Positions 4,023 to 4,333 of a stretch of 9,064 nt of DNA are shown here, one piece after another. This stretch comes from a virus (Duplodnaviria; Heunggongvirae; Uroviricota; Caudoviricetes), in IMG/VR virus record IMGVR_UViG_2872180393_000009; one strand, 5' to 3'. Position 1 is the stretch's first letter. Each line of letters starts with the position of its first letter. Under the pieces are notes generated by a model, which was not told where the DNA came from, ran no database searches, and was given only the letters and a program-made list of their open reading frames with translations. The position numbers and the translations under genes are program-made.

Positions 4023-4099
4023 GGCCCTTTAGCTCAGTTGGTCAGAGCGAGCGACTCATAATCGCCAGGTCGCTGGTTCAAGTCCAGCAAGGGCCACCA
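4023..4099 (+). tRNA. tRNA with CAU anticodon, most likely tRNA-Ile2 (ileX/ileZ-like) rather than tRNA-Met
   Basis: Cloverleaf read by eye: acceptor GGCCCTT/AAGGGCC, D-arm AGCTCAGTTGG, anticodon loop CTCATAA, T-arm GGTTCAAGTCC, 3' CCA encoded. Close to E. coli ileX as I recall it, including C4-G69 and C5-G68. Confidence 0.85.
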
Positions 4100-4100
4100 A

Positions 4101-4177
4101 CCACCACTAGCTCATCCGGATAGAGCATCAACCTTCTAAGTTGACGGTGCGAGGTTCGAGTCCTCGGTGGTGGGCCA
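4101..4177 (+). tRNA. tRNA-Arg (anticodon UCU, decodes AGA)
   Basis: Acceptor CCACCAC/GTGGTGG (unusual C1-G72), D-arm TAGCTCATCCGGATAGAGC, anticodon loop CTTCTAA, T-arm GAGGTTCGAGTCCTC, encoded CCA. Starts 1 nt after the previous tRNA. Confidence 0.8.
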
Positions 4178-4179
4178 GC

Positions 4180-4255
4180 GCCGACTTAGCTCAGCAGGCA
4201 GAGCAACTGACTTGTAATCAGTAGGTCACCAGTTCGATTCCGGTAGTCGGCACCA
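4180..4255 (+). tRNA. tRNA-Thr (anticodon UGU, decodes ACA), thrU/thrT-like
   Basis: Acceptor GCCGACT/AGTCGGC, anticodon loop CTTGTAA, T-loop TTCGATT, encoded CCA. Very close to the E. coli tRNA-Thr(UGU) sequence as I recall it. Starts 2 nt after the previous tRNA. Confidence 0.85.
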
Positions 4256-4258
4256 TAT

Positions 4259-4333
4259 GCGGGCATCGTATAATGGCTATTACCTCAGCCTTCCAAGCTG
4301 ATGATGCGGGTTCGATTCCCGCTGCCCGCTCCA
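4259..4333 (+). tRNA. tRNA-Gly (anticodon UCC, decodes GGA/GGG), glyT-like
   Basis: GCGGGCATCGTATAATGGCTATTACCTCAGCCTTCCAAGCTGATGATGCGGGTTCGATTCCCGCTGCCCGCTCCA; anticodon loop CTTCCAA. Matches my recollection of E. coli glyT. Starts 3 nt after the previous tRNA. Confidence 0.9.

Follow-up and report, generated by a model that had tools for sequence, protein, structure and literature searches.

Four tRNA genes in a prophage remnant

The stretch of DNA analyzed here (the window; 9,064 nt, identical in sequence to NCBI CP026846.1) carries four tRNA genes on the + strand, arranged head to tail within 311 nt and called identically by ARAGORN and Rfam (Table 1). The genes are separated by spacers of 1, 2 and 3 nt, which read A (4100), GC (4178–4179) and TAT (4256–4258), and each of the four encodes its own 3′ CCA. 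All score well above the RF00005 gathering score of 29 bits (E-values 3e-14 to 2.5e-10), and a permissive Rfam scan of positions 3860–5020 returned these four tRNAs and nothing else. A copy of the array in E. coli FDAARGOS_944 is 100% identical and is annotated by PGAP as tRNA-Ile, tRNA-Arg, tRNA-Thr and tRNA-Gly. Single-sequence MFE folds are close to a cloverleaf for Arg and Gly and take an alternative form for Ile2 and Thr; because alternative MFE folds are usual among unmodified tRNA sequences, we did not weigh them against the covariance-model and ARAGORN calls. The array described in the first-pass annotation is therefore real: its anticodons and spacers agree with ARAGORN, with Rfam and with a direct reading of the sequence, and ARAGORN placed all four genes at exactly the coordinates that had been claimed. 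The interpretation that came with it is, taken as a whole, partly supported.

The window is a lambda-like prophage remnant bounded by copies of IS600 (1–303 and 6832–7988), in which Pfam, PHROG and gene calls identify no head or tail genes. Whole-window megablast against complete E. coli genomes gave mosaic pieces only and no full-length match. The array had been placed between Q and the holin gene, and it does occupy an accessory slot of the late region, ahead of the lysis genes, but a c4/isrK antisense-RNA and anti-repressor module (2855–3871) separates it from Q. On its other side, ∼580–680 nt (depending on the holin start chosen) contain no recognizable gene, and the open reading frames in 4334–4911 have no Pfam or PHROGs match. 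An integrase gene lies at 8072–9064; we considered whether this integrase uses the array as its attachment site and rejected the idea, since IS600 lies between the two and nothing links them.

Table 1. Features of the window in and around the tRNA array
Feature	Position	Strand	Evidence and remarks
Late antiterminator Q	2441–2827	+	PF06530, E 2.4e-52; PHROG 79; NCBI gene call
Candidate late promoter, TTGACC-18-TATATT	2832–2861	+	Promoter scan; putative pR′
Short terminated RNA, isrK	2868–2944	+	Terminator scan; Rfam isrK 77.5 bits, c4-a1b1 50.1 bits; putative tR′
C4-type antisense RNA	2970–3053	+	Rfam C4 71 bits, sRNA-Xcc1 77.4 bits
Anti-repressor Ant	3308–3871	+	Pfam ORF6N; PHROG anti-repressor, E 4e-85
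Left edge of array module	3944–3984	+	Homology with other Shigella/EIEC copies starts at 3944
Sigma-70-like promoter	3985–4013	+	−35 TTGCAG (3985–3990), 17-nt spacer, −10 TATTAT (4008–4013)
tRNA-Ile2 type, anticodon CAU	4023–4099	+	ARAGORN; Rfam 70.5 bits; ileZ/ileX homologue
tRNA-Arg, UCU, reads AGA/AGG	4101–4177	+	ARAGORN; Rfam 56.4 bits; argN-type scaffold
tRNA-Thr, UGU, reads ACA	4180–4255	+	ARAGORN; Rfam 69.8 bits; thrU with U16C and U20C
tRNA-Gly, UCC, reads GGA/GGG	4259–4333	+	ARAGORN; Rfam 64.9 bits; identical to glyT
Terminator-like hairpin and T run	4592–4619	+	Terminator scan; possible 3′ end of the array transcript
Lysis cassette: holin, lysozyme, Rz spanin	5014–6187	+	PF04971, PF00959, PF03245; gene calls

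A remnant flanked by insertion sequences and stripped of its structural genes invites the explanation that the array in the window has no current function and is an intact passenger in decaying DNA. Other copies have been cut by IS600 within the holin gene, and decay of a single slot is seen in some relatives, as in RMDEC332, where slot 4 has a 1-nt deletion and an anticodon change. The four genes of the window are nevertheless identical to those of the copies in a fuller prophage and of 12–14 IMG/VR copies, and the promoter boxes upstream of them are intact. We regard the passenger explanation as improbable.

A conserved putative promoter upstream of the array

The left edge of the module is defined by comparison with related loci. 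Those of S. flexneri and E. coli ECMA0423 align with the window by blastn in blocks 3944–4334 and 3944–5103, and RMDEC332 is alignable from ∼3944 onward. A sigma-70-like promoter lies within this shared segment, its −10 box 9 nt from the first tRNA; the promoter-scan match (9/12) sits one base to the left of the boxes as we assign them. TTGCA and TATTAT do not vary among seven otherwise divergent upstream regions, that of an Stx2 phage among them. Four-tRNA arrays in IMG/VR have 18 distinct upstream variants, and the arrangement TTGCA(A/G)-17-TATTAT-9 nt is kept in most; a few have a degenerate −35 element (for example TTGCGG, TTGCTA or CTTGAT). The promoter is kept in every relative examined; its boxes, their spacing and their distance from the tRNA are conserved and the surroundings are not, which gives the array the appearance of a self-contained operon with its own promoter. 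We infer that the predicted promoter is functional and that the operon is nested in the late region. The candidate terminator downstream is weak, given a hairpin that folds no better than shuffled sequences (z −0.24); arrays of a sister type (haplotype B, described below) have a clearer GC hairpin and T run at the equivalent place.

Transcripts started at the sigma-70-like promoter would probably be four-tRNA precursors that are nearly leaderless. In the lytic cycle the array should also be transcribed by Q-antiterminated read-through from upstream. Polycistronic tRNA transcripts of E. coli are cleaved by RNase P at each 5′ end and then trimmed by exonucleases at the 3′ end. Applied to the array, RNase P cuts at the mature 5′ ends would leave 3′ tails of 1–3 nt on the upstream tRNAs, to be trimmed to the encoded CCA by exonucleases such as RNase T and RNase PH. 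The tight packing of the genes should need no special machinery beyond this established route.

The Ile2 and Arg genes

Each gene was aligned to its host counterpart, as the first-pass annotation had proposed. Slot 1 is identical to the Stx-phage ileZ at 74 of 77 positions and to K-12 ileX at 69 of 77. ARAGORN labels it as Met on the anticodon alone, whereas the isotype models of PGAP assign tRNA-Ile; the ileX identity and the PGAP call together rule out an elongator or initiator Met tRNA. The CAU anticodon is thus carried on an ileX-like rather than a Met body, as befits tRNA-Ile2. Its acceptor stem (GGCCCUU/AAGGGCC) includes C4-G69 and C5-G68, the two pairs that Ikeuchi et al. reportedly identified in 2005 as the acceptor-stem determinants of TilS. 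The slot 1 sequence therefore has the acceptor stem expected of a TilS substrate, and lysidine formation is predicted.

Slot 2 is further from its relatives, with 64/77 identities to the Stx-phage argN and 58/79 to host argU. The acceptor stem (CCACCAC/GTGGTGG) is Watson–Crick throughout and is accompanied by A20 and the discriminator G73. The C1-G72 first pair, earlier singled out as unusual, is indeed present in the sequence but is not peculiar to this gene, as the Stx-phage argN and the T5 tRNA-Arg(UCU) have it as well. We considered whether this pair marks a pseudogene and rejected the idea on the basis of the Watson–Crick stems, the presence of A20, C35 and U36 and the occurrence of C1-G72 in these two other genes. 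Also rejected was a single anticodon mutation as the difference between the Arg(UCU) allele and the ‘Lys’(UUU) allele that occupies slot 2 in sister arrays; the two differ at 11 of 77 positions.

The Thr and Gly genes and the origin of the array

Slots 3 and 4 are close copies of host genes. The Thr gene matches K-12 thrU at 74 of 76 positions, the only differences being U16C and U20C in the D-loop, and is identical to argO at 57 of 77; the Gly gene is identical to K-12 glyT over its full 75 nt. The TAT spacer between them corresponds to the 1 nt that follows thrU plus the 2 nt that precede glyT in the host, pointing to the loss of 209 nt, tyrU together with its spacer. This junction is common to 118 of 120 IMG/VR loci, implying a single capture event and later spread. 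The proposal that the pair was captured from a host thrU/glyT operon is borne out by the identities, by the host gene order and by the junction. At the level of sequence, the alignments establish the array as a chimera of a phage ileZ-argN-type pair and a host thrU-glyT pair without tyrU. The anticodon arms of the Thr and Gly genes are unchanged from the host genes, so a role in dosage fits them better than a role as resistant variants.

Distribution of the array

Of 5426 complete E. coli genomes, at least 601 have an array of this family. The composition seen in the window occurs in 16 of the 5426, with 42 copies in total and up to five per genome; Shigella flexneri has it as well, as do 14 of 120 sampled IMG/VR contigs. 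The exact allele, looked for in 185,579 species representatives, is limited to E. coli and Shigella. On whether this is a common, already described prophage cluster, which the first-pass annotation had named as an outcome that would refute it, the answer is divided: the family is common and routinely annotated, but no paper describing the Ile2-Arg-Thr-Gly composition was found in literature searches that included ileZ, argN and argO. Since the family is both common and already annotated, we regard the array as ordinary, except for a role it may have against phage defences that cut tRNA. Sister alleles carry UUU anticodons on argN or thrU scaffolds and are altered at position 33 and at positions 42–43.

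This distribution bears on a benefit to the host rather than to the phage. Under lysogenic conversion, an array expressed constitutively from its own promoter in the lysogen would aid the translation of acquired A+T-rich virulence genes (ipaH, the invasion plasmid) in Shigella and EIEC, and would be retained for this reason even in dead prophages. A predicted promoter that is sigma-70-like and independent of Q would suit such a role, as would an allele confined to E. coli and Shigella and multi-copy where present. The array is also intact in several IS600-truncated remnants in which IS600 adjoins the module, and ipaHb, a gene of the prophage that has the identical array, uses AGA, ATA and ACA well in excess of host genes. 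The same gene has no enrichment of GGA, however; the multi-copy state may reflect related ipaH prophages decaying in parallel, and an array of only 311 nt is expected to stay intact in the short term without selection. We consider lysogenic conversion an unlikely explanation of the array, if a somewhat better one than the inert passenger.

Codon usage and the proposed supply of rare-codon tRNAs

The comparison of codon usage that the first-pass annotation had suggested was carried out over 59 synonymous codons with a small host sample (∼8,900 codons). In the fuller FDAARGOS_944 prophage, which carries the identical array, all four cognate codons are enriched: AGA, ATA, GGA and ACA rank 2, 4, 6 and 8 of 59 in phage/host enrichment, with odds ratios against host genes of 1.6–4.7 (p 2e-2 to 2e-9), and AGG, which the UCU anticodon also reads, ranks first. 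The probability that four pre-chosen codons all fall within the top eight by chance is ∼1.5e-4. AGA reaches 19.8 per 1000 codons in the ipaH cargo gene of this prophage, compared with 2.6 in host genes, and AGA and ACA show the same trend in the remnant genes of the window itself. On the strength of these ranks, the supply of rare-codon tRNAs is the best-supported function of the array.

We therefore lean, with moderate confidence, toward a small tRNA operon, self-contained within the late region of a lambdoid prophage, that supplies tRNAs for rare codons. The host has one or two genes for each of the cognate tRNAs. The products of the array would be extra tRNAs for codons that are rare in E. 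coli (AUA, AGA/AGG, ACA and GGA/GGG), with AUA read after conversion of C34 to lysidine by TilS, and they would ease a translational bottleneck for the A+T-richer genes of the phage and its cargo. Two considerations qualify this interpretation: (i) such enrichment is general in A+T-richer mobile DNA, so the codon correlation is no proof of selection for supply and (ii) a phage-side benefit cannot apply in the window, where the structural genes have been lost. The enrichment is weak in PhiR47_1, a phage with the sister array; GGA alone is significant throughout, and AGA is significant in the early genes only. The tRNAs downstream of Q in SfI, Sf6, ST64T and phage 21 have likewise been read as a supply for rare codons, with ACA enriched in SfI (PMC3636060). 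The codon analysis thus supports the classical view of rare-codon supply for temperate coliphages.

A possible role against tRNA-cutting defences

On the basis of recent experiments, evasion of tRNA-cutting defences has been put forward as the purpose of many phage tRNAs (PMC12445682, PMC12409363). By this account the array would replace or out-compete host tRNAs cleaved by anti-phage systems of competing elements, such as P2 Old, PARIS AriB and HepS, and its sequence changes would reduce cleavage. Among the four, Thr(UGU) shares its anticodon with a host tRNA that known defence nucleases attack: PARIS AriB cuts it as a prime target (PMC12409363), HepS as a secondary one (PMC13043305), and P2-OLD targets it too. 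The Ile2(CAU), Arg(UCU) and Gly(UCC) tRNAs are not the main targets of any defence nuclease found in the tRNA-defence literature examined, and the Gly gene is in any case 100% host glyT.

The Thr gene deserves closer attention because U16C and U20C are its sole differences from thrU. AriB cleavage of E. coli tRNA-Lys is ‘significantly impaired’ by U16C, and the AriB-resistant tRNA-Lys of T5 has C16 (PMC12409363), as the T5 sequence confirms. C16 occurs in ∼34 of 119 prophage copies of the thrU scaffold, and positions 42–43, inside the CNG motif cut by P2-OLD, are changed in five. In addition, UUU anticodons appear in slot 2 or 3 of sister arrays, and Lys(UUU) is the other main target of AriB. 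The D-loop changes might then blunt recognition by AriB while the tRNA stays fully functional. The effect of U16C is, however, known from tRNA-Lys and not from tRNA-Thr, and the anticodon stem-loop of the Thr gene is that of host thrU: both CNG motifs and the AriB site UAAUC↓A are retained, which leaves OLD and AriB the same sites to cleave. Over-expressed host tRNA-ThrU gave little or no protection in the P2-OLD study, and 71 of the 119 prophage copies do not differ from host thrU at all, an odd outcome had there been selection for resistance.

We accordingly hold it doubtful that the array stands in for tRNAs destroyed by these systems, and we have just as little confidence that the Thr gene with U16C and U20C, or the array family more broadly, is a temperate-phage counter to the Toprim tRNases (PARIS AriB, P2 Old) of competing P2/P4-type elements. 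It is the family, more than the copy in the window, that is of wider interest, as the same scaffolds carry different anticodons across prophages. If the changes are adaptive, lambdoid prophages would offer a natural system of minimal-edit, captured-tRNA answers to tRNA-targeting defences.

Comparison with known tRNA arrays

The array adds another composition to those of the familiar tRNA slot that lambdoid phages have between Q and the lysis genes. A close relative is the ileZ-argN-argO triad of Stx phages (933W, Stx2a), which is also located downstream of Q and upstream of the cargo and lysis genes. The two arrays share the 1-nt spacer after the ileZ homologue, the argN scaffold with C1-G72 and the promoter-like −35 and −10 boxes upstream of ileZ. 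The Stx2a phage examined differs in having UCG rather than UCU as the argN anticodon, and the window has a thrU/glyT-derived pair in place of argO and no stx genes. The contrast with the Stx triad drawn by the first-pass annotation therefore holds for the replacement of argO but not for slots 1 and 2, which are ileZ and argN homologues. With a third gene that is thrU-like, the array is a relative of the triad and not a member of it.

The host thrU-tyrU-glyT-thrT-tufB operon has thrU and glyT in the same order and orientation. It differs from the array, which lies in a prophage, lacks tyrU and a 116-nt spacer (209 nt in all) as well as thrT and tufB and carries U16C and U20C in its Thr gene. 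What is left is a thrU-like and a glyT-like gene, a pair derived from the host operon and not the operon itself.

Haplotype B (Ile2-‘Lys’(UUU)-Thr-Gly), found in APEC O1, E24377A and the phages PhiR47_1, vB_EcoS-689R5 and vB_EcoM-606R7, has the same four scaffolds, the 1-, 2- and 3-nt spacers, the promoter and the genomic slot. Its slot 2 has diverged (66/77) and has a UUU anticodon, U73 and C33 in place of the near-universal U33; its slot 1 is 76 nt long, compared with 77 nt in the window, and its Thr gene keeps U16 and U20. The haplotype B allele of slot 2 is present in 748 of 5426 genomes, as opposed to 16 for the allele of the window.

The Thr(UGU)/Asn(GUU) tRNAs of SfI, Sf6, ST64T and phage 21, likened here from their published description, share the accessory slot downstream of Q and the Thr(UGU) specificity and differ in partner tRNAs and array size. 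Thr(UGU) is also among the nuclease-resistant tRNAs of T5 (Lys UUU, Thr UGU and Asn GUU). The C16 of T5 tRNA-Lys is matched by C16 of the Thr gene in the window, and C1-G72 and G73 are found in both Arg(UCU) tRNAs. The T5 tRNAs are far diverged from those of the host, cleavage sites included, whereas the Thr and Gly genes of the window are nearly identical to the host genes. Set beside these systems, the array is a clean example of array building, in which an ileZ-argN pair and a thrU-glyT pair, the latter after loss of tyrU, have been brought together behind one conserved promoter.

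The array in its prophage setting

The array is a lambdoid-prophage tRNA cluster, a known kind, in the slot between the late antiterminator Q and the lysis genes. ARAGORN, run over the whole 9064 nt, finds exactly four tRNA genes, with the positions and anticodons proposed in the first-pass annotation, and the Rfam tRNA model scores all four at 56–70 bits, where the gathering threshold is 29 (E-values 3e-14 to 2.5e-10), far beyond chance. On direct reading, all four genes end in an encoded CCA and are separated by A, GC and TAT, the 1, 2 and 3 nt already reported. That such tight packing implies precise endonucleolytic processing is a reasonable point, with nothing unusual implied. 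In E. coli, polycistronic tRNA transcripts are known to be matured by RNase P, which cuts at every 5′ end, and then by exonucleases; the array transcript would be handled likewise, its 1–3-nt tails being trimmed to the encoded CCA.

Features of the window (nt positions)
Feature	Position	Strand	Basis or note
IS600-type IS3-family copy	1-303	-	
DnaB-like helicase	597-1826		
RusA	2080-2451		
Q antiterminator	2441-2827		PF06530
c4-a1b1, isrK, C4, sRNA-Xcc1	2855-3270		Rfam; directly after Q
Anti-repressor Ant	3308-3871		
Array promoter-like boxes	3985-3990 and 4008-4013		Conservation; also flagged by simple promoter scan
Slot 1 tRNA, anticodon CAU	4023-4099	+	ARAGORN
Slot 2 tRNA-Arg UCU	4101-4177	+	ARAGORN
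Slot 3 tRNA-Thr UGU	4180-4255	+	ARAGORN
Slot 4 tRNA-Gly UCC	4259-4333	+	ARAGORN
Weak terminator-like hairpin	4592-4619		3′ of array
Holin	about 5014-5229		
Lysozyme	5229-5726		
Rz	5723-6187		
HNH endonuclease	6230-6580		
IS600-type IS3-family copy	6832-7988		

The stretch between the IS600 copies is what remains of a lambdoid prophage, all head and tail genes having been lost; a separate integrase begins at 8072. CP026846.1 (assembly GCA_002949495.1) matches the window at 100% identity and CP119446.1 differs from it at 2 positions, and no single complete E. coli RefSeq genome was found to hold all of it. Shigella or enteroinvasive E. coli (EIEC) is the probable background, to judge from the region's IS600 load, the occurrence of the window's slot 2 allele in S. 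flexneri SFBU1023 and the identical array in an ipaH-carrying prophage of strain FDAARGOS_944. The array had been placed between Q and the holin. That late-region accessory slot is indeed where it lies, although Q is not its immediate neighbor, because an immI-like antisense-RNA and anti-repressor module, comprising the Rfam RNAs and Ant, intervenes. The C4 (2970–3053) and sRNA-Xcc1 (3187–3270) matches are both upstream of or overlap the anti-repressor gene leader, and a 72-aa ORF at 2986–3204 has no family match.

The array-to-holin interval (4334–4911, roughly 580 nt) has no Pfam, PHROG or Rfam matches and contains an imperfect inverted repeat with 31-nt arms (4448–4478/4506–4536) and a perfect 12-nt inverted repeat (4780–4791/4826–4837). 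This stretch is near-exactly shared, likewise unannotated, by E. coli FDAARGOS_944, whose fuller prophage holds an identical array, whereas a different 290-nt stretch replaces it in the sister arrays (Ile2-'Lys'-Thr-Gly, haplotype B). In other Shigella-like genomes (loci L144 and L145) the array module runs directly into IS600 at window position 5103, within the holin gene, so several independently truncated remnants keep an intact array.

Transcription signals

TTGCA and TATTAT boxes are invariant upstream of seven otherwise divergent arrays, that of an Stx2 phage included. Of the 18 different sequences that precede four-tRNA arrays in IMG/VR, most keep the arrangement TTGCA(A/G), 17-nt spacer, TATTAT, 9 nt, tRNA, and a few have a degenerate −35 box. 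Homology to other Shigella/EIEC copies starts at window 3944, and the mobile module therefore includes the putative array promoter. Sister arrays have a clearer terminator-like hairpin than the window's. We infer that the array is an autonomous transcription unit that would also be read through from upstream in lytic growth. Such read-through would likely start at a candidate late promoter (TTGACC-18-TATATT, 2832–2861) right behind the Q stop codon and ahead of the terminated isrK RNA. The isrK match (2868–2944) starts ~7 nt later, terminates in a hairpin and T run and overlaps the c4-a1b1 target match; it resembles a short leader RNA that a late promoter makes and a terminator ends, in a putative pR′/tR′ arrangement. 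In Thr-Gly-only IMG/VR arrays, for example those with the commonest upstream variants, the ~55 nt directly ahead of Thr fold into a conserved imperfect hairpin (GGTTCYGAGGGG ... CCCYTGARGAACC) ending 3 nt before the tRNA; a degenerate tRNA-like element and a processing signal are candidate explanations.

Distribution and haplotypes

The array family is common and routinely annotated, with at least 80% of the array present in 601 of 5426 complete E. coli genomes; the exact window composition is the less frequent form and is confined to Shigella- and EIEC-like genomes. In the same genome set just 16 genomes carry the UCU allele of slot 2 seen in the window, at 42 places and up to 5 per genome, against 748 with the sister allele (UUU, C33); the thrU scaffold with C16/C20 is present in 58. 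Among 185,579 species representatives, the window's slot 2 allele is found in just two, an E. coli genome and S. flexneri SFBU1023, each with two copies in IS600-cut remnants. Three cultured-phage records (PhiR47_1, vB_EcoS-689R5 and vB_EcoM-606R7) have a four-tRNA array, each about 93–94% identical to the window array; none has the window's allele, and PhiR47_1 proved on checking to have the sister form. An IMG/VR scan for the thrU-NNN-glyT junction gave at least 120 loci; the matches listed include at least 50 Thr-Gly pairs, at least 39 Ile2-Lys-Thr-Gly arrays, at least 14 with the window's exact composition and at least 2 Ile2-Lys-Lys-Gly arrays.

Haplotype A (the window form) and haplotype B differ in slot 1 length (77 versus 76 nt), in slot 2 anticodon (UCU, Arg, versus UUU, 'Lys'), position 33 (U33 versus C33) and discriminator (G73 versus U73), and in the slot 3 D-loop (C16/C20 versus U16/U20). 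The sister slot 2 allele (L008:1598-1674 in APEC O1, L004:15272-15348 in PhiR47_1 and L007:1601-1677) reads CCUUUAA in its anticodon loop, where C33 replaces the U33 that is near-universal in tRNAs. It is often left unannotated by PGAP ('none' in several genomes, missing in 08-00022) and is labeled Lys by ARAGORN.

Re-anticodoned scaffolds occur in TW10690 (L005:1673-1748), SerU-LTIIb (L019:1122-1197), A31 (L020:1281-1355) and RMDEC332 (L006:1760-1831). Among prophages found via changed annotation labels, a biased sample, anticodon differences on common captured scaffolds are always a position 35 change: the thrU scaffold carries UGU, UUU or UCU, the glyT scaffold UCC, UUC or UAC and the argN scaffold UCG, UCU or UUU. 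These changes may reflect decay, missense suppression or functional re-assignment. Of more interest than the window copy is the way in which alleles and anticodons vary within the family.

Function of the array

Rare-codon supply is the best-supported function of the array, on correlative grounds. When annotated CDS of the fuller FDAARGOS_944 prophage were compared with about 8,900 host codons, AGA, ATA, GGA and ACA ranked 2, 4, 6 and 8 of 59 synonymous codons in relative enrichment, with odds ratios of 1.6–4.7 for the cognate codons; AGG ranked first. AGA and ACA are shifted the same way in the window remnant genes, and the signal is weaker in PhiR47_1. Against codon supply, a surplus of these codons is a general trait of A+T-richer mobile DNA. 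In E. coli K-12 argU, thrU and glyT are single genes and Ile2 has two, so one array copy would roughly double gene dosage. The FDAARGOS_944 prophage (L017:43761-45587) sits at the lambda attachment region (modABC-ybhA/pgl) and has at its far end the T3SS effector gene ipaHb, itself rich in AGA, ATA and ACA; the presence of ipaHb marks this 'E. coli' strain as Shigella- or EIEC-like. Codon supply is likewise the published interpretation of the SfI Thr(UGU) gene (PMC3636060).

It is improbable that the array's Thr(UGU) instead counters tRNA-cutting defence nucleases, several of which target host tRNA-Thr(UGU) according to recent papers: it ranks with Lys(UUU) and Asn(GUU) among the prime targets of PARIS AriB (PMC12409363), is a secondary target of HepS (PMC13043305) and is targeted by P2-OLD as well. 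AriB makes base-specific D-loop contacts, and U16C in tRNA-Lys significantly impairs cleavage (PMC12409363); we confirmed C16 in the sequence of T5's resistant tRNA-Lys. The window Thr gene departs from thrU precisely at U16C and U20C, and among the IMG/VR matches listed C16 occurs in about 34 of 119 prophage thrU-scaffold copies, but 71 of the 119 are plain thrU. Positions 42–43 of the anticodon stem, inside the CNG motif reported cut by P2-OLD (PMC12445682), are changed (G42U/C, U43C) in 5/119 copies (loci L022–L141; matches listed), and against the counter-defence reading the anticodon arm of the window's Thr gene shows no difference from that of thrU, and over-expressed host ThrU did not rescue Old toxicity. 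Slot 4 is 100% glyT, and the tRNA-cutting defence literature examined yielded no nuclease relevant to Ile2(CAU), Arg(UCU) or Gly(UCC).

Origin of the four slots

The first-pass interpretation was largely right, with corrections on the relation to the ileZ-argN-argO triad of Stx phages, the C1-G72 'oddity', the gene order after Q and rarity. In pairwise comparison, slot 1 matches Stx-phage ileZ at 74/77 positions and K-12 ileX at 69/77; slot 2 matches argN at 64/77 and K-12 argU at 58/79. The near-identity claimed for the other two genes and host thrU/glyT is borne out: slot 3 matches argO at 57/77 and K-12 thrU at 74/76, the sole differences, U16C and U20C, both being in the D-loop, and slot 4, compared with host genes only, matches K-12 glyT at 75/75. 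Slot 1, which retains the C4-G69/C5-G68 pairs and whose identical copy is tRNA-Ile in PGAP annotation, is an ileZ-type gene for an Ile2-type tRNA.

The composition was said to differ from the Stx triad, which holds for the argO slot, but slots 1 and 2 are ileZ/argN-like rather than simply different. The 1-nt gap between them already separates ileZ and argN, and slot 2 has argN's C1-G72 first pair. This pair, described as unusual, is present, but T5 tRNA-Arg(UCU) also has C1-G72 and G73, so the window is not alone in having it. The Stx2a phage examined has anticodon UCG in argN and UCU in argO, whereas the window has UCU on an argN scaffold. Alignment to the K-12 operon thrU-tyrU-glyT shows that the window is missing tyrU and the 116-nt spacer, 209 nt altogether, and its TAT spacer consists of the first base after thrU and the last two bases before glyT. 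The slot-by-slot likeness to ileZ/argN and thrU/glyT, together with the loss of tyrU, shows the array to be a chimera, in which a host-derived thrU-glyT pair has been joined to a phage pair of the ileZ-argN type.
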